A stretch of DNA of 48,084 nucleotides, from NCBI GenBank assembly GCA_964560935.1, contig CAZLOC010000001.1, positions 1 through 48,084 on the forward strand. The letters run 5' to 3'. Shown in pieces: positions 7,475 through 46,245 of the stretch; position 1 is the first letter of the stretch; each line of letters starts with the position of its first letter. The notes under the pieces were generated by a model. It had not been told where the DNA came from and ran no database searches. It saw only the letters and a list, made by a program, of their open reading frames with translations. Origin of the DNA: an uncultured Anaerolineaceae bacterium. GTDB lineage: Bacteria; Chloroflexota; Anaerolineae; Anaerolineales; Villigracilaceae. The position numbers and the translations under genes were made by a program.

Positions 7475-7482
7475 GAAAGCCT

Positions 7483-12428: not shown

Positions 12429-12471
12429 GGGCGAATTATAACGCCCTTGGGATGATATAATCATTTTCGCT

Positions 12472-13518: not shown

Positions 13519-14177
13519 TGACCGACAATTTTATTATTGCACCATCTATCCTTTCATCCGATTTCCTGAATTTAGGCGATGTACTGCAAGCCTGCCAATC
13601 CGCGGGCGCAGACTGGGTCCACGTCGACGTGATGGACGGCCAATTTGTCCCCAACCTGACGATGGGACCCTTTATCGTCAAGCACTGCCGCCGCGGGATG
13701 GATTTGCCGCTGGACGTGCACCTGATGGTCGAAAAACCGGAAAACCTGCTGGAAGCTTTCGCCGAAGCGGGCGCATCTCATTTGACTGTCCATGTAGAAA
13801 CTTGCCCACATCTGCACCGCACCCTGGAAGACATCAAATCATTGGGATGCAAGGCGGGCGTCACACTCAACCCAGGCACACCGGCTGCGTCCATTTTTCC
13901 AGTGCTGCCTTTTGTGGATCTGGTACTAGTGATGAGCGTCGATCCGGGTTTTTCTGGCGGTACCTATATTCCGGAAATGGTCAGCAAAGTAGCCGAGATT
14001 CGCCGCAAGCTGGACGAAATCGGTTCCTCCGCCTGGCTGGAAGTGGACGGCGGAATCTCCCCCGAAACCCTGCCCGAGATGAAAGCCGCCGGTGCGACCG
14101 CATTTGTATCGGCCACGTCGATTTTCAAGCACCCGGGTGGCATTGTGGCGGGGATTGCTGCGTTGCGAAATTCATAA
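13518..14177 (+). CDS. rpe: ribulose-phosphate 3-epimerase
   Basis: IAPSILSSDF...GADWVHVDVMDGQFVPNLTMGP...DVHLMV...MSVDPGFSGG...EVDGGI is the full set of Rpe signatures. Confidence 0.95.
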   Translation: MTDNFIIAPSILSSDFLNLGDVLQACQSAGADWVHVDVMDGQFVPNLTMGPFIVKHCRRGMDLPLDVHLMVEKPENLLEAFAEAGASHLTVHVETCPHLHRTLEDIKSLGCKAGVTLNPGTPAASIFPVLPFVDLVLVMSVDPGFSGGTYIPEMVSKVAEIRRKLDEIGSSAWLEVDGGISPETLPEMKAAGATAFVSATSIFKHPGGIVAGIAALRNS

Positions 14178-22464: not shown

Positions 22465-22783
22465 AGGACAATTCTACTAATAAATTCATCAGATTACTAC
22501 TTGTATGGAAGCTATTTATGGTGTATAGTACTATTACAATAAGATGATTTATATAAAGATTGTCTCATTTGGTGCCTGTATGTTTGCCGAACTTTTTCAG
22601 TTAACATCAGCGATAGGGTTGGATACAAAACTTCACCACCAGAAAAAATCCATTGTCTGAGATCAAACGCGTTGCCTCACATTCTAGAGCTTTGTGAAAA
22701 GGACTTATCTTGTGAGTTTTCCAAATTCGTTATGATTGCAACTCGGGTTTATTTTATCCGCACAAATAAAGGAGAGAAAAAAT

Positions 22784-24130
22784 ATGAAACGTTGGAAATT
22801 GATCATGGTGGTAACTATCGTCGCTACAGCTTTGATTGCACTGACTACCTCAGCACTGGCTGCTGTCCCCCCAAATGAGTTGGTTGACATCTGTACCGAC
22901 CTGTACGCTGGCGTATTTGGCGTACCCAATAGTGAACCACTGGGTGTCTGCCAGTGGGATATGGCCATCATTAATGCCACTGACAGTGGTAGCTATGCTA
23001 CCGCCACCGGAGCGGGTGTCACCGTAGGCATGATCGACAGCGGTGTTGATTTCACCCATCCTGACATCGCACCCAACCTCGATGTAGACCGTTCATGCTC
23101 ATTTATCTATGATGATACGCCTACCGCCAATCCGGCCGAGATTGCTAATGGCGATTGCTCCAACAAGGCCGCTGTGCAAGACCTGAGCGGGCATGGTACT
23201 CATACCGCCTCAACAGTAGCCGCACCGATTAATGGCATAGGCATCGCTGGTGTGGCGCCCGAAGCCACTATCGTGGCGCTGAAAGCTTGCACCGAAGCAG
23301 GCTACTGTTTCGCTGACTCAGTTGCCGCCGCGCTGCGTTATGCTGGCGACAATGACATCGACATCGTCAATTTGAGCCTGTTTGCAGATCCCTACTTGTA
23401 CTATTGCAAGTCTGAGAAAGAACAGAAGGCTATTCTCAAGGAACTGGAGGCCGCCGCTCGCTACGCCCAACAGAAAGGCGTGTTGATTGTTGCATCAGCT
23501 GGCAACGAACAGGCCGATTTACAACACCCGGTCTTCGATGATATCAGCCCTGACTGGCCTCCGGGATCGGAAGAGGAGCGCTACGTACAGAACAACTGTC
23601 GCGTGGCTCCGGCCGAACTGCCTGGCGTGCTGACTGTTTCTGCCACCGGTCCTATTGGTTACCCTGGCTATGACCTGTGGATCGCCGATTATTCAAGCGT
23701 GGGTATGTCCCGCGTGGATGTAGCCGCTCCCGGTGGGGATTATTTCCGAGCAACCGGCACCGTTCAGGATGCCGTGCTTGGAGCGGTTCCCTTCAATTCA
23801 GAAATCTGGAACGGCTATGACCCACTCAATGCCTTCTATCCTGGTATCACTACCACTGATGGCGGCGGTGGATATGTCTACTTAAACGGCACCTCAATGG
23901 CGGCTCCGCACGCCGCAGGAGTTGCCGCTCTTGTCAAGCAGATGCACCCCGGTTGGAGTCCAGGCGCAGTCAAGTCAGCCGTGCAGCGCTCGGCGCAGCA
24001 ACTCGATTGCCCACCCGACTGGCAGCCGCTGGGTCCTAACGATGAACGCGAACGTTGCTATGGCAACGGCGGACGTACCTCGTTCTTCGGTCATGGCCTG
24101 GTGGATGCCGCTGCTGCCGCGGAAGAATAA
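22784..24130 (+). CDS. secreted subtilisin-like serine peptidase (S8 family)
   Basis: Signal peptide MKRWKLIMVVTIVATALIALTTSALA and the Asp/His/Ser triad motifs GMIDSGVDFTHPD, GHGTHTAST and GTSMAAPHAAG. The ATG at 22784 follows AAGGAGAG; the track TTG start is 22736. Confidence 0.9.
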   Translation: MKRWKLIMVVTIVATALIALTTSALAAVPPNELVDICTDLYAGVFGVPNSEPLGVCQWDMAIINATDSGSYATATGAGVTVGMIDSGVDFTHPDIAPNLDVDRSCSFIYDDTPTANPAEIANGDCSNKAAVQDLSGHGTHTASTVAAPINGIGIAGVAPEATIVALKACTEAGYCFADSVAAALRYAGDNDIDIVNLSLFADPYLYYCKSEKEQKAILKELEAAARYAQQKGVLIVASAGNEQADLQHPVFDDISPDWPPGSEEERYVQNNCRVAPAELPGVLTVSATGPIGYPGYDLWIADYSSVGMSRVDVAAPGGDYFRATGTVQDAVLGAVPFNSEIWNGYDPLNAFYPGITTTDGGGGYVYLNGTSMAAPHAAGVAALVKQMHPGWSPGAVKSAVQRSAQQLDCPPDWQPLGPNDERERCYGNGGRTSFFGHGLVDAAAAAEE

Positions 24131-28592: not shown

Positions 28593-29039
28593 TTAGCCAG
28601 CGAGCAGCTCTTTTACCATCGCGCTGACCTCGCCGCCGGGCGCGCGGCCAGCCACCTTTTCCAGGACGACCTTCATCACCTTCCCCATATCAGCGGGCGC
28701 GGAGGCGTCAGTCTCGGCGATGGCAGCCTTCACGATCTCGCGCAACTCGTCCGCGGACATGGCTTCTGGCAGGAAGGCTTCCAGCACAACGATTTCGGCT
28801 TGGTTGTCTTTGATGAGATCATCGCGGCCAGCGGTTTTGGCCTCTTCGAGGGCTTCCTTACGGTTCTTGATCTCCTTTTGCAGCAGCGCGATGACCGCCA
28901 TCTCGTCCAGCGTGGTCTGTTTGTCCACTTCGACCTGTTTGATGGCTGCCAGCGCCATGCGGATGGTGTTCTTGCGCACCGTATCGCCAGAGCGCATGGC
29001 GTCCTTCATTGATTCGTTAAGTTGAGTTTTTATGTCCAT
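28593..29039 (-). CDS. GatB/YqeY domain protein
   Basis: 148 aa. LNESMKDAMRSGD...LQKEIKNRKEALEEA...GKVMKVV follows the YqeY pattern. Confidence 0.85.
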   Translation of the reverse strand: MDIKTQLNESMKDAMRSGDTVRKNTIRMALAAIKQVEVDKQTTLDEMAVIALLQKEIKNRKEALEEAKTAGRDDLIKDNQAEIVVLEAFLPEAMSADELREIVKAAIAETDASAPADMGKVMKVVLEKVAGRAPGGEVSAMVKELLAG

Positions 29040-29171
29040 GTAGAGGATTATACTAGAAAGCCACCCTGGTTTATGCCGGCGTTATTCGGAGACTTTCGGT
29101 CACGCCCGAAGCTTTTTACCGACAAACCCACTTGCTTTGCTCTAAATCTATATTCGGAACAAACCAGACGT

Positions 29172-29298
29172 GAGCGCGCATATCAACGTGGCTGCCACAT
29201 CATGCAGTTGACCCCACAAATCATGCATGGATGCGCATCGCTTTTATGAAAGGCTGGGGTTTGCAAAATCACATATTGGGATGAAAATAAATCTGTGA
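29172..29298 (+). pseudogene. decayed C-terminal remnant of a GNAT acetyltransferase (frameshifted, truncated)
   Basis: One frame reads ERAYQRGCHIMQLT. After a frame change near 29225, the frame from 29233 reads AHRFYERLGFAKSHIGMKINL-stop, the classic GNAT C-terminus (A..FY...GF). Only ~85 codons of space separate this from the previous gene. Confidence 0.4.
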
Positions 29299-29582
29299 AA
29301 AACGAAAATATTGAAGTAATTCATAACCAAGAAGAACATCGCTTCGAGATCACAACCGATGGGCATGTAGCCGTGCTTGATTACATGTTGAAGGGTGAGA
29401 TCATGATCTTTACGCACACTGGCGTTCCACCTGCCATTGGGGGACGAGGTTTAGGCAGCAAGTTGGTTAAGACTGGTCTGGATTATGCCAGAGAGAATCG
29501 TCTGCAAATCAGGTCCTTGTGCTGGTTTGTGAGTAAATATATCCGTCGCCATCCCGAATACCAGGATCTGGCGAAAAAATAG
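29295..29582 (+). CDS. small GNAT-like N-acetyltransferase (YjdJ-type, ~95 aa)
   Basis: HNQEEHRFEITTDGHVAVLDY...IFTHTGVPPAIGGRGLGSKLVKTGLDYARENRLQIRSLCWFV matches the short Acetyltransf_CG family pattern. GTG start. Confidence 0.75.
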   Translation: MKNENIEVIHNQEEHRFEITTDGHVAVLDYMLKGEIMIFTHTGVPPAIGGRGLGSKLVKTGLDYARENRLQIRSLCWFVSKYIRRHPEYQDLAKK

Positions 29583-29861
29583 GGTTATGCCTGATGGGGT
29601 TGGCGCAGTTTCTGCATATAAAACGATCAGGGTGTTCGTAAGTAAAGGTAGAAAAACGATCCCAACGCGTAACCTATTCGCGAAGAAATCGTCTTGGATA
29701 TAACAGCGAGTATCCATTAATGGAGGGACAGCAACAACAGGGAGGAGACTTTACGGGTCTGTTGGTGCTGCCAGCTACTTTTTAGCGGTGTGGACATTGA
29801 CTAGTTTTGGCAGACTCGAATGCTCGTCTGAAATATAAACAAACAACATCAACTGGCGAGA

Positions 29862-30155
29862 ATGACAAATTATCGATTTTCTAAGCAAGAGGTGGTTAAG
29901 CTGTTGCCACAGCTCAGGGAACTCCGCGTGGAATATCCTCCTGAACTGTTGGCTGCCCAGCGCGAGTTATACCTTGACATGGTAATACAACTGGCCGCAA
30001 CACGTAGCGCGGTCAATACCAGAAGACAACAGCGGAGATATTCAATCATGCACGAACCAAGTTCAATGGTGGTAAAAGCCCTCATCGTGGTTTTTACAGC
30101 GTTTCTGATTGCATTTGTGGCGTACTCGATTGCAACTGGCAATGTAAATTTTTGA
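29862..30155 (+). CDS. hypothetical tail-anchored membrane protein (97 aa)
   Basis: The only ORF in an A+T-richer patch, with a C-terminal TM (VVKALIVVFTAFLIAFVAYSIA). No recognisable domain. Confidence 0.4.
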   Translation: MTNYRFSKQEVVKLLPQLRELRVEYPPELLAAQRELYLDMVIQLAATRSAVNTRRQQRRYSIMHEPSSMVVKALIVVFTAFLIAFVAYSIATGNVNF

Positions 30156-30215
30156 GTGGCTAAGAGAATTGTTTTCGAATTGAACCATCCCCTTGTTGGG
30201 AACTCTGCGGTTGAA

Positions 30216-30246
30216 CAAAAACACGCTTCATACGAAGCGCGTTTTT
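30216..30246. terminator. bidirectional hairpin terminator next to tRNA 3' end
   Basis: aaaaACACGCTTCatacGAAGCGCGTtttt. Confidence 0.6.
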
Positions 30247-30247
30247 C

Positions 30248-30340
30248 TGGCGGGGAGGGCGGGATTCGAACCCGCGGTCGAGTTTAACCCCGACACTCAC
30301 TTAGCAGGCGAGCCCAATCAGCCAGCTCTGGCACCTCCCC
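30248..30340 (-). tRNA. tRNA-Ser (anticodon GCU), CCA encoded
   Basis: The reverse complement GGGGAGGTGCCAGAGCTGG...CTCGCCTGCTAAGTGAG...long variable arm...GCGGGTTCGAATCCCGCCCTCCCCGCCA folds by hand into a class II cloverleaf. Anticodon loop is CU-GCU-AA. Confidence 0.9.
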
Positions 30341-30368
30341 ATATTCAATTTTCTTGCCCGGAATGACA

Positions 30369-30456
30369 TGGCGGAGGGAGTGGGATTCGAACCCACGTGG
30401 GCTTGCACCCAACCTGTTTTCAAGACAGGCACCTTCAACCGCTCGGTCATCCCTCC
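30369..30456 (-). tRNA. tRNA-Ser (anticodon UGA), CCA encoded
   Basis: The reverse complement is GGAGGGATGACCGAGCGGTTGAAGGTGCCTGTCTTGAAAACAGG...GTGGGTTCGAATCCCACTCCCTCCGCCA. Anticodon loop is CU-UGA-AA, with a long variable arm. Confidence 0.9.
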
Positions 30457-30572
30457 GGGCGGAACGATTTTACCATATCTTAGTGATGGAATCGATGTTC
30501 GGCGCATTTCCCAATTCACAGCTCTCAAGTTGAATCTCGGAATCCTGACAAACTTGGTATAATTCTCGCCCT

Positions 30573-32591: not shown

Positions 32592-33809
32592 ATGCCCCCA
32601 AAAATTGTACAACCACCGGAACCCAATAAACTTCTCTCGCAAGAACAGGAGCCGATCAATGCTTTGCATGACTGGCGCAGCAGTGTTCTAGATATTTTTC
32701 TGCCGCTTACTTCGCTCGCTATTTTTCCCTCGGTTGTTCAAACTGTGCTGCAAGCAATCAAAAATCCACAGATTGCATGGCAGGGGGTTGCAATATTTTT
32801 ATTCTTTTACCTGATCCTTGTTTTTGCAACCATTCAACGAAACCTGGGTGCAAACGTACGTAGTTGGATTGTCGTCGCTCTAACCTATCTGACCGGCGTG
32901 GTATCAATGGCACGCGGTGGTTTGGCCGGGGACGGAACTATTTTTCTGACAGTTTTGCCAATCCTGACCATCACACTGGTAAACGCACGGATGGGGATAT
33001 ATGCTGCTGGGGTTTCATTATCTACTTTTGTCGTATTTGGAATATTGGCCCACTTCGGTGTGCTGAGTCAATGGCTGATTATTCATGATAATCCGCAGAC
33101 TCCGGATCAATGGCTTTACTTTGGATTGGCGATGAGTACATTGATCATTGTGACCGTCTTCGTTGTGGTCAGGTTCTCCAACTTCCAATTGGAAACGCTT
33201 GAGTCAGTCCAGAAAGTGTCGCAAGCCCTTGCAGATGCCAACAGGCAGTTGGAGCAAAAAATACTACAGCGTACCCAGGAACTCAGCAATGCCAACCAGC
33301 ATTTACAATTCCTTGCCACCCACGACAATTTAACAGGCCTACCAAACCGTATTCTATTTTTTGACCGTCTCGAACAGGCCATCAAAAAAAGTCGTCGGCA
33401 AAAGCATCGCTTTGCTCTGTTTTTTATTGACCTGGATGACTTCAAAAGGATCAATGATTATTTTGGGCATCTCGTTGGAGACCAGGTGCTACAAACCGTC
33501 GCCGATATTCTAAATCATGTTGTGCGTGATAGTGACACGGTTGCACGCCTGGCGGGAGACGAATTCACGATCATTCTGGACAACGTTCAAGACATATCCA
33601 ATATCAAAGCCATCGCAAGAAAAGCCATCAAAGCTGTCTCACAACCCATTGAGGTTCCGCAAGAGACCGTTGTCATGACGGTCAGTATTGGTATCAGCTT
33701 ATTTCCCGACCACGGTGAAGATGCCGAAACCCTGCTCCGGAAAGCGGACGCGGCGATGTATCACGTCAAAAACGGGGATAAAAACGGTTATTTCCTGCAT
33801 TCCGAATAA
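32592..33809 (+). CDS. membrane-bound diguanylate cyclase (GGDEF domain, AGDEF variant)
   Basis: Five or six N-terminal hydrophobic helices, a coiled coil, then HDNLTGLPNR...FFIDLDDFKRINDYFGH..GD...RDSDTVARLAGDEFTIIL. Confidence 0.9.
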   Translation: MPPKIVQPPEPNKLLSQEQEPINALHDWRSSVLDIFLPLTSLAIFPSVVQTVLQAIKNPQIAWQGVAIFLFFYLILVFATIQRNLGANVRSWIVVALTYLTGVVSMARGGLAGDGTIFLTVLPILTITLVNARMGIYAAGVSLSTFVVFGILAHFGVLSQWLIIHDNPQTPDQWLYFGLAMSTLIIVTVFVVVRFSNFQLETLESVQKVSQALADANRQLEQKILQRTQELSNANQHLQFLATHDNLTGLPNRILFFDRLEQAIKKSRRQKHRFALFFIDLDDFKRINDYFGHLVGDQVLQTVADILNHVVRDSDTVARLAGDEFTIILDNVQDISNIKAIARKAIKAVSQPIEVPQETVVMTVSIGISLFPDHGEDAETLLRKADAAMYHVKNGDKNGYFLHSE

Positions 33810-38799: not shown

Positions 38800-39459
38800 T
38801 TAAGTCGAAATATATTCGCGCAGGCTATGCTCCACCGCATACGCGGCAGCCTCCGCGCGATTGTTGACTCCCAACTTGGAGAGAATACTGCTGACATAGT
38901 TGCGCACCGTGCCTTCCCCAAGGAACAAGTTTTTAGCGATCTCGCGGTTGGTCTTGCCTTCCGAAACCAGCAGAAGCACATGTTTTTCCTGCTGGCTCAG
39001 GTGTGCAAAGGCCGAAGCTTCTTCTTCCTTCACCGCCCGGCGCACTTCCTGGAACACGCGCTGCGTCACAGCCGGGTCGAGCAGCGCTTCGCCGCGTCCA
39101 ACCGCTTCGATGGCCTTGACCAACTCCTCGCTGGCGATCTGCTTGAGCACATAGCCCGACGCCCCGGCGCGGATGGCCGAGAACAACATCTCATCCTCGG
39201 CGTACGAAGTCAGCATGATAACTTTGGTATTCGGATGTTGGTCGACGATTTGCTCGCAGGCTTCGATCCCCGATGTGCCCGGCAGGCGGATGTCCATAAC
39301 AACCACATCTGGTTCCAGGGCGGCCACCTGTTCCAGCGCATCGCGCGCCGAATTCGCCTCTCCAACGACTTCAAACTGCGGATGTCGTTCCAACAACGAC
39401 TTCAACCCCAAGCGGACGACCTCGTGGTCATCCACCAGTATGATCCTTTGTTTTGCCAT
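38800..39459 (-). CDS. NarL/FixJ (LuxR-type HTH) response regulator
   Basis: Receiver ([32 protein letters not shown]) plus a LuxR HTH ([45 protein letters not shown]). ATG at 39459; the track start is 39519. Confidence 0.9.
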
Positions 39460-39526
39460 TAAGGTTAGCCTCCAAGATGGTCGGATAAAGAGTATAGTCC
39501 AGACGAAGATGTCTGACAAGGGCGGA

Positions 39527-39569
39527 TAAAACAGGGCGTGCCGTGCAACTCTGCGAGACGCGCCCTGTT
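39527..39569 (-). terminator. probable terminator after the OmpR-type regulator
   Basis: AACAGGGCG (39530-39538) and CGCCCTGTT (39561-39569) form a 9-bp stem. Minus-strand continuation is tttatcc. Confidence 0.45.
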
Positions 39570-39654: not shown

Positions 39655-40377
39655 CTACTCTTTATTCTCTCTTCGAAAATCCACAAACCGGTAACCTACA
39701 CCGCGCTCTGTCAGGATGTACTTGGGATCGGAAGGATCAGCCTCCAACTTCTGGCGCAGGTAGTTGATGTACAGTCGCACGTAATGAGGCTCATCGCGAT
39801 ACTCGTAACCCCAGACCTTGGTCAGCAACTGATCGTGGGTGACAACCCAGCCCGCATTCTGCACCAAATGGTAGAGCATGCGGTATTCGGTCGGGCGCAG
39901 TTTTACCAATTTGCCTTCTAACCAAATCTCGCGGCGATCGAAATCGATCTTGAGACGGTCGTCCACCTCGATCAGTCCATGCATCGAACCGCTGGCGCTT
40001 TCCGTGCGACGCAGCACAGCTTTCACGCGGCTGACCAGTTCGCGCGGGCTGAAAGGTTTGGTAACGTAATCGTCTGCACCCAGTTCCAGGCCGCGCACAC
40101 GATCATCTTCCTCGCCTTTGGCCGTCAACATGATGACCGGCACATTGCTCACCTCGCGGACGGTCTCCAACACTTCGAAACCATCCAGGTCGGGCATCAT
40201 TACATCCAGCAGGATTAAATCGGGGGGCACATCGCGTATCTTTTGAATGGCCTGTTTCCCGTTGAATGCCTCACTGACCTGGAAGCCATCATGTTCCAGG
40301 TTCATGCGAATGAAACGGACCATGCGTTCTTCGTCGTCTACTACCAGGATGCGGCGGCGTTCAAAATCGTCTGGCAT
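39655..40377 (-). CDS. OmpR/PhoB-type winged-helix response regulator
   Basis: Receiver ([37 protein letters not shown]) plus the Trans_reg_C domain ([29 protein letters not shown]...[13 protein letters not shown]...[11 protein letters not shown]). Confidence 0.9.
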
Positions 40378-40379
40378 AC

Positions 40380-40622
40380 TTACTCCCTTACGAATCCGAT
40401 GATTTGGTCTTCTTCCTCGCCTGCCAGAATTTCGATGAAGCTAATGCGGTATAAGGGCCAGATCACCTCGACGACGTTGTGCTCCAGGTAGTGCAGGTCT
40501 TTTCCGTCTTTCTGGCGCGGGTTGTGGACTGTGATGATAACATCGGTTGGCTTGGGTAGTTCATCTACTTCACCGATGATGGCGGATTCATTTGCAATAT
40601 GTAAAATAACGGTATGTGGCAT
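40380..40622 (-). CDS. hypothetical 80-aa protein, operon partner of the FHA protein and the OmpR-type regulator
   Basis: Clean ORF with an ATG start. Its stop lies 2 nt before the regulator ATG and its start 17 nt after the FHA stop. No motif I recognise. Confidence 0.55.
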
Positions 40623-40639
40623 TCGTGCACCTTTTTCTG

Positions 40640-41137
40640 TTAGGGATTCTTTAACAGGATCTGGATTTTGAGTTTACCCAGGGAAAGGATATCGCCATGA
40701 TTAAGGGCCTGGCTGTCGTTTGGTTTTAAACGTACACCGTTCAAATACGTTCCATTCGATGAACCCAGGTCCATAACATAGACTTGGCTTTCTTCTTTCC
40801 TTAGAACTGCATGTAAGCGTGAAACACCACAGGCGTAGGCCTGATAGGGGGTCAGATCGATATCCGGCATGATGGGTTGGGCGTCACTGATACGTCCCAG
40901 TGTGAATTCTTCGCGGTCGGAGAGGGGCAGGATCTGCCCGCTATCGGTCAGGTGGATGGCGGCCCACGCATCGAGATCCTTTGGAAATACGCTGGTTCTC
41001 TTTAAATCCCGTGTTATTTGCTCTTCTGAGATGTTTTGTGTGACGATGGGATTTATACTAGTTAATTGCGTGCCGCAATCACTGCAAAATACGGTCCCGT
41101 CTAAATTTTCATGTGTACAGTTGGGGCAAATGATCAT
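40640..41137 (-). CDS. zinc-ribbon + FHA domain protein
   Basis: N-terminal CPNC...CSDCG, then an FHA core FTLGR...VSRLHAVL...VMDLGSSNGTYLNGVRL...GDILSLG. The start overlaps the upstream stop as ATGA. Confidence 0.85.
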   Translation of the reverse strand: MIICPNCTHENLDGTVFCSDCGTQLTSINPIVTQNISEEQITRDLKRTSVFPKDLDAWAAIHLTDSGQILPLSDREEFTLGRISDAQPIMPDIDLTPYQAYACGVSRLHAVLRKEESQVYVMDLGSSNGTYLNGVRLKPNDSQALNHGDILSLGKLKIQILLKNP

Positions 41138-42618
41138 ACCAGTTCTTCCTTTTTTTCTTGTGGCATTATGAGAGCCCGTGTGCCATATTTGATTTCTTTA
41201 CTTCCTTCTTCGGAAAACGCCTGCGATTTCTCAATATTTTCAGCTTCTATCAAGGCTGTGCGTGCCAGATCCCGTTCGCCCTGTGACAACAAACTTGTTG
41301 CAAGTTGCTTCATATGATGGGCAGCGAGTTCAAACTGACCTTGGTCCACTTCCATATGAGCTTTTTCTTGCATGCGATACAGGGTCAGTTTGCCAAGGGC
41401 CCGGATAATCAAGGCAGACGGTGGTATTGTGGTGTCTGCCTCTTCTTTCACCTCACGTGAAAATTCGATCCGGACAGGCTGAATCGGCGTCGGTAGGGCA
41501 GCGATCGTGAGTTTGAGTGAGCCGCGCAAAACTTGAATCATGTCCCCTTTTGTCAGCGATGGATCGATGCGGAATTCGAAGAGAACGCTCAGAGTGGAAT
41601 CTTGCAGAACCGGGCCCAGGTGGATGTCTCCCTCCATCGGCAGCGGACCAGTTTCAGGTTGAGTCCGAAACGCATAGGCCAATTCAACGCCGGTTGTCTC
41701 TTTGAAGTCCAGGACAACGTCATCGGCCAGGATACGTGCCAGCGTGTCGAATTTTTCCACTAGAAAACGTTGGATGTCTTCGGCGCGGGAAATATAGCGG
41801 CTGCTTCCGCCGGTGCGATTGGCCAGGGTGTCCAGGAACACGTCGTTCCACTCTTTCCCGATGCCCATTGCGCTGATGCCAATCCCTTGCCTGGCAGCTC
41901 GTTCCGCCAATTTGAGGCACTGCTGTTCATCCCCATATGTATGGCCATCGGTCAGGAGGATGATATGGTTGACACGTTCATGGCTGGCATTGCGTTGGAT
42001 CTCATCGTAGGCCGCTTGCATGCCCTGGTAAATCTCAGTTGCGCCCCCTGACTGTAACATTCGAATGCGGGCCTCGAGTTTGCTTTTGTCGAACGAGTAC
42101 GAAGCGGGGATAAGAACTTCTGCTCGATCGCTGAATGTGACCACACTGAAGATATCTTGAGACCGCAGATTCCGCATGACCTTGATAGCCGCATTTTTGA
42201 CTATATCCATTTTTTCATCTTTCATGGACGTGGAGCGGTCGAGCACCAGGCTGACGTTTAACGGCGGTGCAGGGATTTCTTCTGATTTTTGTTGAGGTAT
42301 GATTTCCAGGAGTACGTACAGGATCTGTGGTTCGTTCAAGCGAACCAGGTTGGGGCGGCTGTAATAAATTTCATATTTTACTGGTAAAGACGGCTCTTCT
42401 TCTGGCGGTAGTGTGGCATCGTATTTTTTGCGTCGTTTGGGATTGGAGAGCGTTTCGTATGCCTGCTGGATTTCAAGAAAGATTTCGGTCTCTCCTGCCG
42501 CTTTGTTTTTGTCCGGATGCAAACGTTGCGCGGCTTCGTAATAAGCCTGCTTGATTTCCTCCTGGGTTGCGTTGCGTGCTACGCCAAGGGTGACGTAGTA
42601 ATCCGGGTTTGTGGGCAT
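41134..42618 (-). CDS. J-domain (DnaJ-like) - von Willebrand factor A fusion protein
   Basis: J-domain DYYVTLGVARNATQEEIKQAYYEAAQRLHPDKN (HPD present), vWA MIDAS LVLDRSTSM with ILLTDGHTYGDE, and an unassigned ~200-aa C-terminus. The ATG at 42618 lies 1 nt after the PP2C stop; the track TTG start is 42627. Confidence 0.85.
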   Translation of the reverse strand: MPTNPDYYVTLGVARNATQEEIKQAYYEAAQRLHPDKNKAAGETEIFLEIQQAYETLSNPKRRKKYDATLPPEEEPSLPVKYEIYYSRPNLVRLNEPQILYVLLEIIPQQKSEEIPAPPLNVSLVLDRSTSMKDEKMDIVKNAAIKVMRNLRSQDIFSVVTFSDRAEVLIPASYSFDKSKLEARIRMLQSGGATEIYQGMQAAYDEIQRNASHERVNHIILLTDGHTYGDEQQCLKLAERAARQGIGISAMGIGKEWNDVFLDTLANRTGGSSRYISRAEDIQRFLVEKFDTLARILADDVVLDFKETTGVELAYAFRTQPETGPLPMEGDIHLGPVLQDSTLSVLFEFRIDPSLTKGDMIQVLRGSLKLTIAALPTPIQPVRIEFSREVKEEADTTIPPSALIIRALGKLTLYRMQEKAHMEVDQGQFELAAHHMKQLATSLLSQGERDLARTALIEAENIEKSQAFSEEGSKEIKYGTRALIMPQEKKEELV

Positions 42619-42619
42619 T

Positions 42620-43519
42620 TTATCCAATCAACTGCGCAATAATGACACTGATATTATCCGGCCCTCCGGCCGCGTTCGCTGCCTCGACCAGATTTTGACA
42701 GGCGCGCTGCAAAGTGGGTGCGTCCTTGATCATGCGATGCATATCTTGCTCGGCCACAACACCCCATAAGCCATCGCTACAGAGCATAAGGTAGCCTGTC
42801 TGGGGGAAGGCAACGGTAAAGATGTCAGGTTCGAGGATTTCACCCTGCCCAAGCGCACGATAAAGAACATTGCGATGAGGATAGTTTTCGGCTTCATCTG
42901 CGCTGATATGCCCAAGCTCTTCCAGGCGTTTGACCAGGGAATGATCGCGTGTGATCACTTCTATGCGCCCTTCGGAGTAAATGTTATAAGCACGGCTGTC
43001 ACCCACATGGGCAATTGTTACTTGTTGGCCCAATACCAGGGCAGCCGTCAGCGTGGTGCCGCTGCTGGGGGCTTCGTTTTGAATGGTTTTCTGCGCTTCT
43101 TTAACTGCGGCTTGCATGATTTCTTGCAGGGATTCTTCGGGCGGGGTAGGCTTGAGACTGAACAAGTAAGGCTGGAACTTGCGCATGATATGGCCGGCAA
43201 CAGTGCGGATGGCTGCATTGCTGGCCACTTCTCCATACTGATGACCACCCATTCCATCTGCGATGATGTATAACCCTAAGGGTAAACTGCCTGAATTGCC
43301 AGCCAGCGTTGTTGTGAGGGCAAAAAGACTATCTTCGTTTAACTCGCGCTGTTTGCCAACCGATTGCCCTGAAGCAGCAACCAGTTGTTGCAAATCAAAT
43401 TGTACGTTTTTGCTGTACAAAATCGACTGGATTTGTTGATCGGTAAGGGGGGCTGTGGTAACTGTTTCTGTTATTGGAGCAGCTCGACCGCCGAATAATT
43501 TTCGGAAAAATTCCATCAC
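42620..43519 (-). CDS. PP2C-family Ser/Thr phosphatase
   Basis: NEDSLF, IIADGMGGHQYGEVAS, GDSRAY, LCSDGLW and GGPDNISVI. Confidence 0.9.
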   Translation of the reverse strand: MMEFFRKLFGGRAAPITETVTTAPLTDQQIQSILYSKNVQFDLQQLVAASGQSVGKQRELNEDSLFALTTTLAGNSGSLPLGLYIIADGMGGHQYGEVASNAAIRTVAGHIMRKFQPYLFSLKPTPPEESLQEIMQAAVKEAQKTIQNEAPSSGTTLTAALVLGQQVTIAHVGDSRAYNIYSEGRIEVITRDHSLVKRLEELGHISADEAENYPHRNVLYRALGQGEILEPDIFTVAFPQTGYLMLCSDGLWGVVAEQDMHRMIKDAPTLQRACQNLVEAANAAGGPDNISVIIAQLIG

Positions 43520-43534
43520 AATAATATCTCCTTC

Positions 43535-45496
43535 TCAGGCAAGTAACGCATAAACCTGGTGGTCGGTTGAACCAACATAGACAATATCATCATACACCAA
43601 GGGAGAGCCAACGATCTGGCCTTCTGTCCCAAACTTCCAACGAAGGCGTCCAGTGCGATATTCCAGACAATACAGGTAACCATCCACCGAACCGCAATAG
43701 AGAGAGTCTTTGTAAACAACCGGCGAACTGCTAACCTGATGCTCCGTGCGGAAGCGCCAGACTTCTTTGGCTGTTCTTGCCTCGACCGCATAGATGAATC
43801 CATCTGCTGCGCCGACAAATACCATGTCATCGCTTACATAGGGGGATGAAATGGAGCCTTTGCCCAGCCTGAAGCGCCAAATGATGAAACCATTGCGGTG
43901 ATCAAGGGCATACAGCGTACTATCCAGGGAACTGAAGATGATCATGTGCCCACTGGTGGTTGGGGATGAAGTAATGGCTCGTTTTGCACGGAAGCGCCAC
44001 TTCAAATTGCCCCGAAAGTCAATCGCCAGGAAATCGCCCATTTCGTTGCCCACATAAACCAATTCGTTGGCGACAAATGGCGTTGAGCGAACAGGATCTG
44101 AAGTTTCAAATTTCCAAGCCAGGCGTCCCGTGTTCAGGTTAACAGCGTGCAGGTATTGGTCGTCGGAACCTACAAAAATGTGGCCTTCTGCAATGCGCAC
44201 GGAGGAACGTACCGGACCGTCGGTGAAATACGTCCACACCACTTTGCCGGAGCGCGCGCTTACGACATACATACGGTTATCTTCTGAACCAAAGTAGATG
44301 TTGTCTTCGTATGCACTGGGCTTGGAAACAATTCCGCCTTCGGTGGGGTATTTCCACAAGAATTTTCCATCGGCCGCGTTGATGGCGTACAGGTTGTTAT
44401 CGTAGCAACCGATATAGATCGTATTCTTATAGTTCAAGGGTGTGCCGCGGATTTCATCTTCACACTTGAACGTCCATAAAGGTTTGATGCCGTTCCCCTT
44501 GCTAATAGATGTTGTCGAAACTTTTGACAGGATGCCGGTCTTGTGCGCGGCAGCCAGTAGAGCATCCTTCATGTCGCTTGCGCTTGAGAAGCGGTCTTCG
44601 GGATTGTACTCCAGTGCCTTCGAAACGACAGCTTCCACTTCGGCAGAAACCGCAGGATTGATTTTTCGCAACGGGCGTTCTGCAAACGAGAAAGGCGGTT
44701 CCATGCGCGGGTCACGGCGGGACAGGGCGTGATGCAAAGTAGCGCCCAATGCGTACAGATCAGCTACGGGCGTAGCTTCGCCGCGATATTGTTCGGGGGG
44801 GGAATATCCCTCGGTGCCGATCATCGTCCCTTTTTGCCCGGATTGGAAGGTCTTGGCAATGCCAAAGTCCACCAACTTTATTTCGCCGTTGTGATCGACC
44901 ATCACATTCGATGGTTTCATATCGCGGAAGATGATCGGATCGGGCTTGTGGTTGTGCAGGAAAGAGAGTACATCGCAAAGTAAAATACCCCAGGTCAGTA
45001 CCTGTTCCTCGGGCAAAAAACCGCCTGTGTCACTGATCACTGCTTCCAGGTCCTTACCGTGGATATATTCGAGCACAAGGTAAGAGCGATCTGACTCTGA
45101 GAAATAATCATAGATGCGCGGAATAGCCGAATGATTAAGTGTTGCCAGTATATTAGCTTCCCGCTCGAAATTTTGAACAATGGTTTTCCGCACTAATGGA
45201 TCTGGCGCGGTATTAACCATCTCTTTGACCGCGACCAGCTTCACCACGTTTGGGAAGTGTAAATCACGGGCGCGGTATACAGAGCCCATGCCGCCAACCC
45301 CTATGACTTCCTGGATCAAGTAGCGCTTAAAAAGGGTAGCACCTGACTCAAGTTGCCGTCGAGGGGGTTCTCTTCCGTTTCTGTCTTCTGGCGGTGATAT
45401 ATGTTGTGTTTCCAGTGGAAACTCCTGCAAAGCTATGACAAGTGCCGCTATTTTATGCGGCAAACTGGTTGAGTATTGATTTATTATAGTAGGCAC
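43535..45496 (-). CDS. Ser/Thr protein kinase fused to a PQQ-like beta-propeller, no transmembrane segment
   Basis: The kinase has GVGGMGSVYRA, VAVKEM, FRDMKPSNVM, DFGIAK and SPPEQ. The C-terminal ~300 aa carry repeated G..lW.f......ssP...d..vYvGs.D..lYAl blades. The GTG start at 45496 is uncertain. Confidence 0.9.
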   Translation of the reverse strand: MPTIINQYSTSLPHKIAALVIALQEFPLETQHISPPEDRNGREPPRRQLESGATLFKRYLIQEVIGVGGMGSVYRARDLHFPNVVKLVAVKEMVNTAPDPLVRKTIVQNFEREANILATLNHSAIPRIYDYFSESDRSYLVLEYIHGKDLEAVISDTGGFLPEEQVLTWGILLCDVLSFLHNHKPDPIIFRDMKPSNVMVDHNGEIKLVDFGIAKTFQSGQKGTMIGTEGYSPPEQYRGEATPVADLYALGATLHHALSRRDPRMEPPFSFAERPLRKINPAVSAEVEAVVSKALEYNPEDRFSSASDMKDALLAAAHKTGILSKVSTTSISKGNGIKPLWTFKCEDEIRGTPLNYKNTIYIGCYDNNLYAINAADGKFLWKYPTEGGIVSKPSAYEDNIYFGSEDNRMYVVSARSGKVVWTYFTDGPVRSSVRIAEGHIFVGSDDQYLHAVNLNTGRLAWKFETSDPVRSTPFVANELVYVGNEMGDFLAIDFRGNLKWRFRAKRAITSSPTTSGHMIIFSSLDSTLYALDHRNGFIIWRFRLGKGSISSPYVSDDMVFVGAADGFIYAVEARTAKEVWRFRTEHQVSSSPVVYKDSLYCGSVDGYLYCLEYRTGRLRWKFGTEGQIVGSPLVYDDIVYVGSTDHQVYALLA

Positions 45497-45612
45497 TCAG
45501 GGGTTTGGCAACTCCCCACATAAGTTTACCCTGATTTATCCCACGTGACGATTACTGTTTTGTAAAGTTCCCTTGCACAGATTGTCAATCTGCGGCAAAA
45601 TGAACCACAGGT

Positions 45613-46245
45613 ATGATCAAAATACTCGCTGTGAGTGACCAGGTGGTGGAACGCATCTACGCGCTGTCTGCGGACGGGCATTTTCAAGACGTGGACTTAG
45701 TTCTTGGCTGTGGAGATCTGCCTTATACCTATCTGGAGTATCTTATCACCGTATTGAGTGTCCCGCTATACTACGTGCCTGGCAATCATGACCCTGAGTA
45801 CAATGTTTACCGTTCTATCTCTCGTGCCGAAGGCGGCCTGAACCTGGATATGAAAAGCACTTATGCCAACGGACTTTTACTGGCCGGCCTGGGCGGCAGC
45901 ATTCGTTACCGCCCCGATGGGGTCAACCAGTACACGCAAGAACAGGCTTTTTTTCGAGCTTATAGGTTATTGCTAAATTTGCTGGTCAACCAGGTTCGCT
46001 TTGGCCGCAAGCTGGATATTCTCATCAGTCATTCCCCTCCATTTGAAGTTCACGATGACGATTCCCAGGCCCATCAGGGACTCAAGGCGCTGAACTTTCT
46101 CATCCGCACAGTGCGGCCACGCTATCTGTTTCACGGGCACACTCATTTCTTCCGTCAGAATCTGGAAAACTCCGTTACATCGATCAGGCAGACCACCGTC
46201 ATGAACATTTTCCCCTACAAAGTGATCGAGGTCAATGATGAGTAA
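45613..46245 (+). CDS. metallophosphoesterase (calcineurin-like)
   Basis: ILAVSD, GCGDL, VPGNHD, ISHSPP and HGHTH are the five metallophosphatase blocks. Confidence 0.8.
   Translation: MIKILAVSDQVVERIYALSADGHFQDVDLVLGCGDLPYTYLEYLITVLSVPLYYVPGNHDPEYNVYRSISRAEGGLNLDMKSTYANGLLLAGLGGSIRYRPDGVNQYTQEQAFFRAYRLLLNLLVNQVRFGRKLDILISHSPPFEVHDDDSQAHQGLKALNFLIRTVRPRYLFHGHTHFFRQNLENSVTSIRQTTVMNIFPYKVIEVNDE

Follow-up and report, generated by a model that had tools for sequence, protein, structure and literature searches.

What do six close-set minus-strand genes on a contig of an uncultured Anaerolineaceae bacterium do together, and which known system lies nearest to them? They occupy 39655-45415 of a 48,084-nt stretch (the window), and are flanked by a sigma-70-like promoter and a terminator-like hairpin (Table 1). 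An earlier note, made from the sequence alone, took them to be one tightly coupled Ser/Thr-phospho-signalling operon, offered the TerY-P triad and the T6SS threonine-phosphorylation pathway as comparators, and could name no described system of this exact composition. We found no description in the literature either, and the operon appears so far to be unstudied.

Table 1. Positions in the window of the operon genes, their junctions and the adjoining features.
Feature	Position	Strand	Remarks
OmpR-family response regulator, WalR/VicR-like receiver	39655..40377	-	Pfam Response_reg + Trans_reg_C
p80, conserved 80-aa protein	40380..40622	-	Predicted Sm/LSm-like five-stranded barrel, acidic tail, C-terminal GFVRE
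Zinc-ribbon + FHA protein, ArnA-like	40640..41137	-	Pfam FHA 2e-16, Zn_Ribbon_1 3e-7
J-domain + ArnB-type vWA protein (J-vWA)	41134..42618	-	Pfam DnaJ 1.4e-21, VWA 6.8e-23
PP2C-type Ser/Thr phosphatase, Stp1/IreP-like	42620..43519	-	Pfam PP2C 2.7e-17
Soluble Ser/Thr kinase + PQQ-type beta-propeller, 626 aa	43535..45415	-	Probable CTG start 45415
Kinase/PP2C junction	stop 43535 to start 43519		15 nt
PP2C/J-vWA junction	stop 42620 to ATG 42618		1 nt
J-vWA/FHA junction	ATGA overlap 41137-41134		-4 nt
FHA/p80 junction	stop 40640 to ATG 40622		17 nt
p80/regulator junction	stop 40380 to ATG 40377		2 nt
Operon promoter-like site, TTGCCA-17-TATAAT	45483..45511	-	11/12 consensus positions matched
Terminator-like hairpin, then UUUUAU	39527..39569 (fold ~39530-39568)	-	Operon end
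Divergent calcineurin-like metallophosphoesterase	45613..46245	+	Pfam Metallophos 6e-10

A six-gene operon with an older core

The locus is a real six-gene operon, intact across Anaerolineales. The ORF positions and junction lengths of the earlier note came out at the same values on re-check, Pfam bears out its domain calls for five of the genes, and the catalytic and binding motifs that it saw as intact are invariant or near-invariant across 68-79 orthologues. It had also proposed to ask whether the gene order recurs, and all 67 of the Anaerolineales species-level genomes with enough flanking DNA to be eligible have the six genes in the same order, so that the genes are co-conserved and the one-operon reading is supported. 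Junction lengths are conserved as well, with medians at the orthologous loci of 11, 2, -4, 16 and 2 nt from kinase to regulator. The ATGA overlap of the J-vWA and FHA genes is kept in 59 of 73 loci, and the regulator is translationally coupled to p80, the gap between them being -1 to 7 nt in 79 of 79. The six genes, coupled in translation, lie between a single promoter and a single terminator-like hairpin. At nearly every orthologous locus the -10 box, usually CACTATAAT, is found 25-73 nt 5' of the kinase start, and the hairpin with T-tract that had been noticed after the regulator is a stable fold (-32.3 kcal/mol, z = -2.84 in an 86-nt context) with UUUUAU directly 3' of it. No TM-like segment is present in any of the six proteins (Kyte-Doolittle, 19-residue mean; maximum 1.38), as had been said of the kinase, and no histidine kinase, here too in agreement with what had been said, occurs among the 30 larger window ORFs scanned (180 aa or longer, a few mostly overlapping ones in 1-38000 aside).

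Across Chloroflexota classes the part held in common is kinase/PP2C/vWA/FHA/p80. This five-gene core, composed of an AfsK-like kinase, a PP2C, an ArnB-type vWA protein, an FHA protein and a p80 predicted to be Sm-like, is the older arrangement, and it is found in several of these classes. In the Anaerolineales form the vWA protein carries a fused J-domain, and p80 is followed by an appended WalR-like response regulator. Other Chloroflexota classes have neither of them in the operon, so the core mechanism does not depend on either, and in one lineage the J-domain is present and the regulator is not; the two are later, independent, lineage-specific additions. No sampled Chloroflexota lineage outside the main Anaerolineales group has the regulator in the operon, and since the vWA protein, the FHA protein and p80 stay with the kinase there, those four form the older conserved partnership. 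One Herpetosiphonaceae genome has an FtsW/RodA gene immediately 5' of the core cluster, a single sighting.

Kinase and phosphatase

The kinase has Pfam matches to Pkinase (2e-40) and Beta-prop_ACSF4/PQQ_2 (1e-86), and its best NCBIfam match, far under the cut-off, is AfsK. AfsK likewise joins a soluble kinase to a PQQ propeller, so this fusion, which the earlier note had singled out as unusual, is an architecture already known. Among 68 kinase orthologues, VAVKE, RDMKPSN, DFGIAK and GTEGYSPPEQ are invariant or near-invariant. The start is most likely the conserved CTG 45415. An N-terminal peptide, (L/M)ET...RQQLxSGxTLVNRY, is conserved, with codon-position entropies of 0.72/0.38/1.60, and AGGAG stands 6-7 nt 5' of a CTG in 48 of 64 loci. 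The alternative start, GTG 45496, is rejected: the promoter-like site overlaps it, so the 653-aa ORF that begins there is over-extended into the promoter. The PP2C begins at GTG 43519, or at ATG 43516 according to JGI records. It scores 215.8 bits against the NCBIfam model Stp1_PP2C_phos (cut-off 230), and ADGMGGH is invariant in 73 orthologues.

The vWA and FHA proteins resemble ArnB and ArnA

The J-vWA protein is laid out as a J-domain (1-67), two beta-strands (80-108), vWA (120-293), a beta-sandwich (296-391) and a four-helix bundle (402-481), and no Pfam model matches residues 300-494. Its AF2 model (pLDDT 84.9, pTM 0.78) has the vWA, split beta-sandwich and four-helix bundle, for which the top Foldseek match is ArnB of the ArnAB complex (8s05_A; E = 2e-22, TM 0.73), with 4fx5 and 5a8j next. 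By sequence, too, the best PDB match of the vWA part is the ArnB chain of 8s05. The MIDAS residues D127/S129/S131/T194/D224 are invariant in the orthologues, and so, across Chloroflexota classes and even at about 30% identity, is the C-terminal G472-x-K474..G479-T480-R481-x-L483. For the FHA protein the best PDB sequence matches are 5a8i_A (ArnA, 4e-8) and 8s05_C. Its C4/C7/C18/C21 form CxxC-x10-CxxC with the same spacing as C21/24/35/38 of ArnA, and the pThr-binding residues of its FHA domain are invariant (R82, S106, R107, H109, N128).

The closest known system is therefore the archaeal ArnA/ArnB module, rather than TerY-P or T6SS, the weaker comparators, since ArnA/ArnB is the top match by both sequence and structure. 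ArnA is a Zn-finger-FHA protein and ArnB a vWA protein with beta-sandwich and helix bundle; in the archaeal complex, Zn-finger docking is combined with phosphorylation-driven FHA binding to the C-terminal helical domain, the kinase being ArnC and the phosphatase PP2A (PMC6509490, PMC12852372). The apparent bacterial counterpart is here joined to its own kinase and phosphatase, a small protein predicted to be Sm-like, a J-domain and a WalR-like regulator. Identity to ArnA and ArnB is low, 15-19% by structural alignment, and sequence alignment recovers just the FHA core. The ArnB-type layout also occurs widely beside other partners (E. coli YfbK, C. acidiphila 4FX5, MerR-linked copies on Deinococcus plasmids), so the fold alone is no proof of an ArnAB-like mechanism.

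p80

The 80-aa ORF had been called an orphan. It has no Pfam, NCBIfam or PADLOC match, but it belongs to a compact conserved Chloroflexota family, with matches forming 1824 clusters at 90% identity and 175 at 50%, nearly all of them about 80 aa long, and at least 512 matching stretches among GTDB species genomes. Its AF2 model (pLDDT 87) finds only Sm-type or LSm-domain-based structures among the Foldseek matches listed, at E of 0.0097 or higher and TM 0.48-0.69. p80 founds a new Chloroflexota family, for which the model predicts an Sm-like fold. The FHA gene is directly 5' of p80 in every context with readable upstream DNA, and a minimal FHA-p80 pair is also among the contexts.

The regulator

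Of the six genes, the regulator is conserved best (median 89% identity). With the receiver alone, the five best PDB matches are WalR/VicR/YycF or VicR-like receivers. D58, T85 and K107 are invariant. A canonical Asp pocket is kept, so an unlinked histidine kinase may be the main input. T106 aligns with WalR Thr101, the PrkC site, in identical surrounding sequence; many OmpR-family regulators with a Thr at that position are not phosphorylated by PrkC (PMC4478028).

Proposed mechanism and alternatives

The reading that we favour, with somewhat better than even confidence, is that the operon encodes a phosphothreonine switch in the cytoplasm, with a bacterial counterpart of the ArnA/ArnB pair at its centre. 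We infer its phosphosites, complex formation, DnaK recruitment and output through the regulator as follows. The kinase propeller would sense a cytoplasmic cue. The best candidate phosphothreonine is T480 of J-vWA, in an invariant KYGTRxL motif with Leu at pT+3. The zinc ribbon would tether the FHA protein to the beta-sandwich/helix-bundle surface, as ArnA is tethered to ArnB, and the FHA domain would clamp the phosphothreonine, so that a loose complex becomes tight; the PP2C would undo this. p80 may be a stoichiometric fifth subunit, bound to the FHA protein or else placing its conserved acidic C-terminus (R-E/D) in the intact MIDAS site. In Anaerolineales the J-domain could recruit DnaK to the complex, so that a partner is remodelled or released, and the output would be transcription via the co-translated regulator, controlled by sequestration and release and/or by kinase phosphorylation at T106, besides Asp58.

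A possible but rather doubtful alternative is control of growth or the cell envelope of the PknB/PstP/FhaA or PrkC/PrpC-WalR type, in which the WalR-like regulator (plus unlinked substrates) is the main substrate of the kinase, and the FHA and vWA proteins serve as scaffolds or substrates and not as the switch itself. It overlaps the phosphothreonine switch and differs mainly in which component carries the signal. Its strength is the regulator: the WalR/VicR/YycF-like receiver with its Thr101 context, the high conservation, and best NCBIfam matches (RpaB, YycF, MtrA) that are essential growth regulators of three phyla. The Stp1/IreP-like PP2C fits, too, and AfsK, the architectural relative of the kinase, is reported to govern polar growth through DivIVA (10.1101/2021.03.01.433328). 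However, the regulator falls under every equivalog cut-off and is missing from the operon in the lineages sampled beyond the main Anaerolineales group, all parts of the system are cytoplasmic with no PASTA or other wall-sensing domain, and the FtsW/RodA gene beside the core cluster is one case only. We regard as unlikely a chaperone-targeting module in which J-vWA, as a class-C J-protein, hands a client (p80, the regulator or another) to DnaK via its vWA/MIDAS surface and phosphorylation merely gates client binding. The J-domain HPD (34-36) is invariant in 36 orthologues, the MIDAS is intact, and the conserved acidic/hydrophobic tail of p80 could be a MIDAS or Hsp70 ligand; against this, no dnaK gene is linked, and several lineages that retain p80 and the remaining core, Chloroflexia and Herpetosiphonaceae among them, have an orthologous vWA protein with no J-domain, so chaperone recruitment cannot be the ancestral function.

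A TerY-P-type triad of vWA, PP2C and kinase, the lead of the earlier note, which would here act as a metal-sensing or anti-phage defence switch, we consider very improbable. The three domain types and the MIDAS metal site are there, the kinase domain matches generic PADLOC kinase models, and TerY-P-like modules are reported as stand-alone defence systems (PMC11090510). Yet the vWA reaches 22 bits with the TerF/TerY-like model, under its cut-off of 29.4, and carries the ArnB-type beta-sandwich and helix bundle common to the top structural matches, and the TerY-P kinase has a zinc ribbon or OB fold fused at its C-terminus, whereas the kinase here has a propeller. PADLOC matches only generic kinase, PP2C and, weakly, receiver domains, and none of vWA, FHA or p80. 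The neighbours are housekeeping genes with no ter, T6SS, defence, restriction or effector genes found nearby, and the strict vertical synteny (67/67 species) is unlike a defence island. Less probable still, to the point of being nearly discounted, is a T6SS-style PpkA/PppA/Fha1 pathway controlling the assembly of secretion or surface machines, despite the co-occurrence of kinase, PP2C, FHA protein and vWA domain. The FHA protein matches the TagH FHA domain at 34 bits where the cut-off is 120. In PpkA the vWA is the periplasmic domain of a membrane kinase, whereas here it is a separate cytoplasmic protein and all operon proteins are soluble. T6SS and other secretion genes are absent from the 48-kb window, and none was seen in the related loci whose neighbours were examined; the earlier note, too, had said that the window has no Ter or T6SS gene.

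Base composition and surroundings

The five genes from kinase to p80 have GC of 0.47-0.51 and GC3 of 0.51-0.58, the regulator 0.54 and 0.66, and the other genes used for comparison 0.564 +/- 0.033 and 0.653 +/- 0.065. The A+T richness that had been counted for the FHA-to-kinase part is thus a real dip, but a modest one; at the orthologous loci the operon is 1.6 points of G+C under its flanks, and lower in 25 of 37. It is no sign of transfer and does not mark a foreign island; the operon is vertically conserved with its divergent neighbour. That neighbour, the metallophosphoesterase gene, stands in divergent orientation at about -5.6 kb in 54 of the 63 loci that were eligible, and is possibly an accessory of the system. 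The genes around the operon are housekeeping genes, and directly beyond the hairpin the next gene has a promoter-like site of its own (39519..39491).

Operon layout and conservation

All six minus-strand ORFs that the earlier note had read from the sequence are present with the junction lengths it gave, and Pfam agrees with its domain calls, finding Pkinase and a PQQ-type beta-propeller in the kinase, PP2C, DnaJ and VWA in the J-domain-vWA protein (J-vWA), a zinc ribbon and FHA in the FHA protein, and Response_reg and Trans_reg_C in the regulator. The remaining gene encodes an 80-aa protein, p80. The kinase had been described as having no membrane span, and TM-like segments are absent from all six proteins. 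A promoter-like site lies upstream of the kinase, and the hairpin reported after the regulator is borne out by folding (-32.3 kcal/mol in context, z = -2.8) and is followed by UUUUAU. The gene downstream has a promoter-like site of its own. The mechanical ORF of J-vWA begins at a TTG overlapping the PP2C stop; the orthologue alignment favors the ATG (MPTNPDYY...), giving a 1-nt gap to PP2C.

The neighborhood search that had been proposed was run by tblastn, using the window proteins as queries against p80-bearing loci. The six genes recur, with their order and shared strand unchanged, in 67/67 species genomes with sufficient flanking DNA, the orthologue evidence coming wholly from metagenome-assembled genomes (MAGs). 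That the operon is real and conserved we regard as close to certain. It is a vertically inherited core operon and no island, and its setting is housekeeping and chromosomal, with window neighbors that include recG, aconitase, rpe, L,D-transpeptidases, and lipoate ligase. Its components are annotated generically or as 'hypothetical' only. A divergently oriented metallophosphoesterase gene is kept in position in 54/63 Anaerolineales loci.

The A+T richness ascribed to the operon is real in the window but small, with the genes from kinase to p80 at GC 0.47-0.51 versus 0.564 ± 0.033 for the other genes. This dip of ~1.5-2 SD averages only 1.6 points over 37 orthologous loci; being so small, in an operon that is vertically conserved, it was rejected as evidence of horizontal transfer. 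A MASE11-GGDEF diguanylate cyclase gene is lower in G+C than the operon and lowest in the window (GC 0.465, GC3 0.485), and there are 2 further low-GC stretches (table).

Coordinates of the operon genes, of other window features, and of related loci; identities are medians relative to the window, and gaps to the next gene are given as window value; median across loci
Feature	Location	Strand	Identity (%)	Gap (nt)	Remarks
Kinase	43535..45415	-	72	15; 11	
PP2C	42620..43519	-	67	1; 2	
J-vWA	41134..42618	-	58	-4; -4	ATGA overlap in the window and in 59/73 loci
FHA protein	40640..41137	-	57	17; 16	
p80	40380..40622	-	67.5	2; 2	Gap -1 to 7 nt in 79/79 loci
Regulator	39655..40377	-	89		
Promoter-like site of operon	45511..45483	-			TTGCCA-17-TATAAT
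Apparent kinase start	45413-45430	-			CTG 45415, context gcAGGAGtttccaCTG
Rejected kinase starts		-			GTG 45496 (653 aa); TTG 45319 (594 aa)
J-vWA start region	42618-42627	-			TTG 42627, ATG 42618
Hairpin after regulator	~39530-39568	-			
Promoter-like site, downstream gene	39519..39491	-			
NarL/LuxR-type response regulator	38800-39456	-			
Metallophosphoesterase	45613-46245	+			
Second Hanks-type kinase	12472-13518	+			
DAGK_cat/YegS-like ORF	11487-12497	-			
rpe	13518-14177				
Peptidoglycan-remodelling cluster	3133-7306	-			
Diguanylate cyclase	32592-33809	+			
Low-GC stretches	~29000-30500, 22000-23500				
L095, Herpetosiphonaceae MAG	1252-8249				Five-gene core
L101, divergent p80 locus	6599-7249				FHA-p80 pair
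L102, Deinococcus plasmid	5106-7221				MerR, ArnB-type vWA
L103, Deinococcus plasmid	5378-7242				MerR, ArnB-type vWA

Kinase start, kinase family, and phosphatases

Neither of the existing gene models for the kinase is acceptable. The 653-aa ORF is wrong because it runs into the promoter, and the 594-aa model, as in JGI records, truncates the first strand of the kinase domain. The 14 codons 5' of the latter's TTG carry a coding signature in 68 loci (codon-position entropies 0.72, 0.38, and 1.60), the upstream codons encode the conserved peptide (L/M)ETRNIT...RQQLQSGxTLVNRY, and in many loci an in-frame stop is found a few codons 5' of the conserved N-terminal peptide. The conserved first codon is CTG in 48/64 loci, ATG in 11, and TTG in 5, and most CTG loci have AGGAG 6-7 nt 5' of the CTG. 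By this alignment the kinase appears to begin at a conserved non-canonical CTG, with the start used by public gene callers falling 32 codons too far downstream, and such a conserved start suggests that kinase translation is deliberately kept low. The UTR varies from 25 to 73 nt across loci. The stretch from the -10 box to the Shine-Dalgarno sequence was considered as the site of a conserved 5'-UTR hairpin or riboswitch, but this was rejected, small hairpins occurring in some loci with no consistent structure.

The best NCBIfam match of the kinase is AfsK (NF053615) at 198.2 bits, and since this is far under the equivalog cut-off of 1300 it is no AfsK orthologue. AfsK of Streptomyces is likewise a soluble kinase with a C-terminal PQQ-type beta-propeller, but the architecture alone is in common, and the known AfsK partners AfsR, KbpA, and DivIVA are not encoded here. 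The PP2C is Stp1/IreP-like, scoring 215.8 bits against a 230-bit cut-off. Divergent from the operon promoter region is the 210-aa calcineurin-like metallophosphoesterase, which has no NCBIfam match and could be a second phosphatase of the system, ArnAB using a PPP-type metallophosphatase, or a mere syntenic neighbor. Elsewhere in the window there is a second Hanks-type Ser/Thr kinase, short (348 aa) and with no extra domain, whose start overlaps the end of a convergent/overlapping DAGK_cat/YegS-like ORF and which abuts rpe.

The FHA protein and J-vWA compared with ArnA and ArnB

The top sequence and structure match to this system is the archaeal pair ArnA/ArnB, which represses motility in Sulfolobus acidocaldarius (PMC6509490, PMC12852372; PDB 5A8I, 5A8J, 8S05). 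The FHA protein, with Pfam Zn_Ribbon_1 and FHA domains, has its best PDB sequence matches to 5a8i_A (ArnA) and 8S05 chain C. Its Cys 4, 7, 18, and 21 have the CxxC-x10-CxxC spacing of ArnA C21/24/35/38, and the pThr-binding residues R82/S106/R107/H109/N128, intact as in ArnA, are invariant among orthologues. In every Chloroflexota context with a vWA gene, the FHA gene adjoins it. For J-vWA itself, the top PDB sequence matches are J-domains of DnaJ/Hsp40 proteins; Pfam DnaJ scores 76.8 bits, H34-P35-D36 is invariant in 36 sequences, and by these matches it is a J-domain protein of the Hsp70 co-chaperone type. The best non-J matches are 8s05_A and 5a8j_A (ArnB paralogue).

The AlphaFold2 model of J-vWA (pLDDT 84.9, pTM 0.78) consists of the J-domain at 1-67, 2 beta-strands at 80-108, the vWA domain at 120-293, a beta-sandwich at 296-391, and 4 helices at 402-481. 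As modeled, and at fold level only, it has the three-part topology that PMC6509490 and PMC12852372 give for ArnB. Foldseek ranks 8s05_A first (E 2e-22, TM 0.73, 423 columns), followed by matches that include 4fx5, 5a8j (fourth), ITIH1, and Sec23/24. The phmmer alignment with 8s05_A spans residues 117-313 only, residues 300-494 have no Pfam match at E <= 0.01, so that ArnB_C is not recognized there, and identity in the structural alignment is only 15-19%, with the C-terminal domain covered by no sequence model.

The title of the 8s05 entry is 'ArnAB complex an archaeal ortholog of the Sec23/24 core motif', and the Sec23/Sec24 core of the COPII coat indeed shares the layout of zinc finger, vWA 'trunk', beta-sandwich, and helical domain (Foldseek E ~1e-12 to 1e-13, TM ~0.4). 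Here, and in ArnAB too, the zinc finger comes in trans. The likeness does not go beyond the fold, our system having no gelsolin domain and no membrane or GTPase partners. Such a layout is widespread in prokaryotes.

The MIDAS residues of J-vWA are invariant, the site being intact as in ArnB. Candidate phosphosites in the helical domain are an invariant T480, in KYGTRxL, and T441; for T412 and T454, invariance is limited to the Anaerolineales set. Across lineages, at ~30% identity, the vWA protein keeps the MIDAS residues and a C-terminal motif G472-x-K474...G479-T480-R481-x-L483. Many bacterial FHA domains prefer pTxx(I/L), and as far as the sequence tells, a Thr with Leu at +3 in J-vWA fits that preference.

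We consider an ArnAB-like architecture highly probable. The fold alone is insufficient for assigning a mechanism, because ArnB-type architecture is widespread in bacteria with other partners, examples being YfbK, 4FX5, and the MerR-linked Deinococcus plasmid copies. What argues for an ArnAB-like switch is several features taken together: a neighboring zinc-ribbon-FHA gene whose product has ArnA as its closest solved relative, a kinase and a phosphatase dedicated to the system, and a conserved Thr motif within the helical domain.

Plasmid relatives, found by tblastn with the vWA part, were examined as further FHA-vWA systems and rejected. On Deinococcus plasmids (L102 and L103) ArnB-type vWA genes directly follow MerR-family regulator genes, with no FHA or kinase partner. 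Matches to Synechocystis plasmid vWA genes are weaker, and MerR is annotated under them. The vWA plus MerR arrangement is a second, different pairing of ArnB-type architecture with a transcription factor. An 86-aa ORF after the D. psychrotolerans vWA gene has no relation to p80.

The p80 family

The 80-aa protein had been called an orphan, but it matches 1824 clusters at 90% identity, of which the 120 listed are all exactly 80 aa and 69-94% identical. A scan with one genome per GTDB species finds relatives at at least 512 sites, and the best 80 loci come nearly all from MAGs bearing an Anaerolineales, Anaerolineae, or Chloroflexota label, a few labels being odd or generic; among them are MAGs labelled Anaerolinea thermophila, Brevefilum fermentans, and Ca. 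Villigracilis. Pfam, NCBIfam, and PADLOC give no identification, and a profile search of PDB sequences gives nothing significant. An exhaustive HMMER search of 1.84 billion representatives returns 175 p80 clusters only, nearly all of ~80 aa, with no link to a larger family, and the family is therefore compact and self-contained. Judged by these searches, p80 is a new small-protein family.

The AF2 model (pLDDT 87) is a five-stranded barrel with a disordered acidic tail, and there is a conserved C-terminal GFVRE. All 50 Foldseek matches listed are Sm-type or LSm-domain-based (Edc3 LSm domain, Lsm2-8, archaeal SmAPs), at weak significance (E at least 0.0097, TM 0.48-0.69). Pfam and NCBIfam do not place p80 among Sm/LSm sequences, and the model is missing the N-terminal helix.

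More distant p80 relatives (30-50% identity) come from MAGs with the labels Chloroflexia, Herpetosiphonaceae, Ktedonobacterales, and Anaerolineae, as well as from unlabelled metagenome contigs. In 4 of these loci (L093, L095, L097, L100) the order is kinase, usually with propeller, then PP2C, a vWA protein of 410-433 aa without J-domain, FHA, and p80, with no regulator after; in L093 the PP2C position is held by an unannotated 295-aa gene. From such contexts we take the ancient unit to be kinase/PP2C/vWA/FHA/p80. L092 has a 31%-identical p80 with an OmpR-type regulator 4 nt later. An invariable co-occurrence of J-domain and regulator is excluded by L099, an Anaerolineae MAG with the J-vWA fusion and no regulator, and on this sequence comparison the J-domain and the regulator are independent additions to the core. 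The FHA gene directly precedes p80 wherever upstream DNA is readable, and from these contexts FHA-p80 is the tightest pair. In L101 a 95-aa minimal FHA protein followed by p80 adjoins an SMC_N (RecN-like) gene, kinase, PP2C, and vWA genes being absent from the vicinity, an arrangement suggestive of FHA-p80 as the elementary pair. The L095 core lies directly downstream of an FtsW/RodA-family gene, a single occurrence whose arrangement resembles the actinobacterial fhaA-fhaB-pstP-rodA-pbpA-pknA-pknB cluster.

The regulator

Pfam recognizes Response_reg (7e-33) and Trans_reg_C (2e-25), and the Asp pocket is canonical, with D14/D15, D58, T85, and K107 invariant in 79 orthologues, so that by sequence it is an OmpR-family response regulator. 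Its best curated families are RpaB (231.5 bits, equivalog cut-off 330), YycF (223 bits, cut-off 340), and MtrA (221.9 bits, cut-off 300), all under cut-off. With the receiver alone, the five best PDB matches are WalR/VicR/YycF or VicR-like receivers.

In Bacillus subtilis, WalR Thr101 is phosphorylated by PrkC (PMC4478028), and the PrkC/PrpC-WalR system resembles ours in combining an OmpR-family regulator with a Hanks-type kinase and a PP2C. The counterpart of Thr101 is T106, at least 90% conserved, and the 2 receivers are nearly identical around the phosphorylated Thr; by analogy T106 may be a phosphorylation site of the regulator as well. Unlike the kinase here, which is soluble and in the regulator's operon, PrkC is a PASTA kinase of the membrane that shares no operon with walR. 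WalR's cognate kinase WalK adjoins it, whereas here, in line with what the sequence reading had claimed, no histidine kinase is found among the 30 larger window ORFs scanned (in 1-38000, those of at least 180 aa).

Directly downstream of the operon there is a NarL/LuxR-type response regulator, 84-98% identical in the subset of related loci where a true orthologue is nearby, at a variable distance of ~+1.06 to +1.9 kb. It is probably outside the operon.

Proposed mechanism, alternatives, and described systems

To the observed operon structure, domain identities, structural match, and conservation patterns we add a mechanism by analogy with ArnAB, where a Hanks-type kinase (ArnC/ArnD) and a Ser/Thr phosphatase act on the pair. 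[quoted passage not shown] As a fifth subunit, p80 might bind the FHA protein or give an acidic ligand to the MIDAS site, a partner's glutamate having been proposed as MIDAS ligand by the ArnB authors. In Anaerolineales, the J-domain would recruit DnaK and the WalR-like regulator would be the transcriptional output. This ArnAB-like phosphothreonine switch with a regulator output is the picture we lean toward, somewhat on the favorable side of even; we are less sure of the specific sites, of what p80 does, and of the regulator being the output.

A PknB/PrkC-type growth or envelope circuit centered on the regulator would account for the WalR-like receiver and overlaps the favored picture, but the regulator is missing from the older core, and we think this alternative rather unlikely. 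Improbable to a greater degree is a chaperone-targeting module, suggested by the J-domain, which cannot be the ancestral function because the J-domain is lineage-specific. The earlier note had named 2 comparators that fare worse. PMC11090510, citing Anantharaman et al. 2012, describes the TerY-P triad of TerY-like vWA, PP2C, and Ser/Thr kinase as a proposed metal-dependent phosphorylation switch, the kinase C-terminus being a zinc ribbon, or an OB fold in defence variants. Linked vWA, PP2C, and kinase genes are in common with our operon. The vWA, however, scores 22.0 bits against the 29.4-bit cut-off of PF10138 (vWA-TerF-like), versus 82 bits for generic VWA, and has ArnB-type extra domains; the kinase ends in a PQQ-type propeller; and FHA, p80, J-domain, and regulator are additional. 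There are no ter genes, restriction/defence systems, or mobile islands near the operon, where neighbors are housekeeping with synteny in 67/67 species. PADLOC gives nothing for the vWA, FHA, and p80 proteins, and membership in a defence system was rejected, its matches being the generic kinase and PP2C plus weak receiver-domain matches only. With both the TerY-like vWA and the kinase-fusion tests failed and no defence context, a TerY-P or defence switch is very improbable. A T6SS-type pathway (PpkA/PppA/Fha1-TagH), in which a membrane kinase works with a periplasmic vWA, is given next to no credence, since topology and gene context are both unsuited: there are no TM segments, TIGR03354 (VI_FHA) scores 34 bits versus a 120-bit cut-off, and the window has no T6SS gene, as had been noted.

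The earlier reading could name no described system of this composition, and our literature search found no paper on the operon, searches on the J-domain, vWA, FHA, and Chloroflexi composition and on FraH giving nothing relevant. The kind of system is nonetheless already known, because ArnAB is well studied in Sulfolobus and an operon of vWA, STPK, FHA, and PP2C genes is described in D. radiodurans, DRA0331-DRA0334, where the FHA protein and phosphatase are antagonistic in kinase signalling (bioRxiv 10.64898/2026.01.23.701218). By description, that is likewise a bacterial operon with a stand-alone FHA protein, but its kinase is transmembrane, its PP2C bears its own KI-FHA domain, its gene order differs, and a J-domain, p80, and response regulator are not reported there. 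ArnAB differs in being archaeal, our bacterial system having no archaellum to regulate, and in its PPP-type PP2A in place of PP2C; here kinase and phosphatase are in the same operon, with an N-terminal J-domain on the vWA protein, a putative Sm-like 80-aa subunit, and a presumably co-transcribed response regulator in addition. What is new is the Chloroflexota-wide five-gene core with its p80 family, the J-domain-vWA fusion, a WalR-like regulator that is probably coupled in translation to p80 while the larger window ORFs scanned include no histidine kinase, and the conserved CTG kinase start.

The comparison ties ArnA/ArnB, so far archaeal, to bacteria, where a single system encodes together the kinase, the phosphatase, both partners, and a putative extra subunit, and where the Anaerolineales version adds a DNA-binding output. 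The operon is fixed, at the scale of the genomes with enough flank, across an abundant and mostly uncultured order of filamentous bacteria. Being compact and reconstitutable, the set lends itself to tests of how the signal passes from FHA-vWA phospho-switches to transcription; the unusual J-domain-vWA fusion points to Hsp70 involvement in Ser/Thr signalling, and the arrangement suggests a possible means of control for an essential-type WalR-like regulator that has no histidine kinase next to it. A joint reading, in which the five-gene core is a true ArnAB homologue with p80 as obligatory subunit and the Anaerolineales complex uses J-domain-recruited DnaK to load or release the regulator, we hold to be doubtful, at odds between those of the growth-circuit and chaperone-targeting alternatives. 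If true, the five-gene core would be ancient and self-contained, a phospho-regulated assembly with the same zinc-finger, vWA-trunk, beta-sandwich, and helical layout that forms the Sec23/24 core, and the master input of an essential response regulator would come from a Hanks-kinase/FHA/chaperone circuit in place of the missing histidine kinase.

Near the start of the window, 3 tandem YkuD-type L,D-transpeptidase genes follow an N-acetylmuramoyl-L-alanine amidase gene, forming a peptidoglycan-remodelling cluster.
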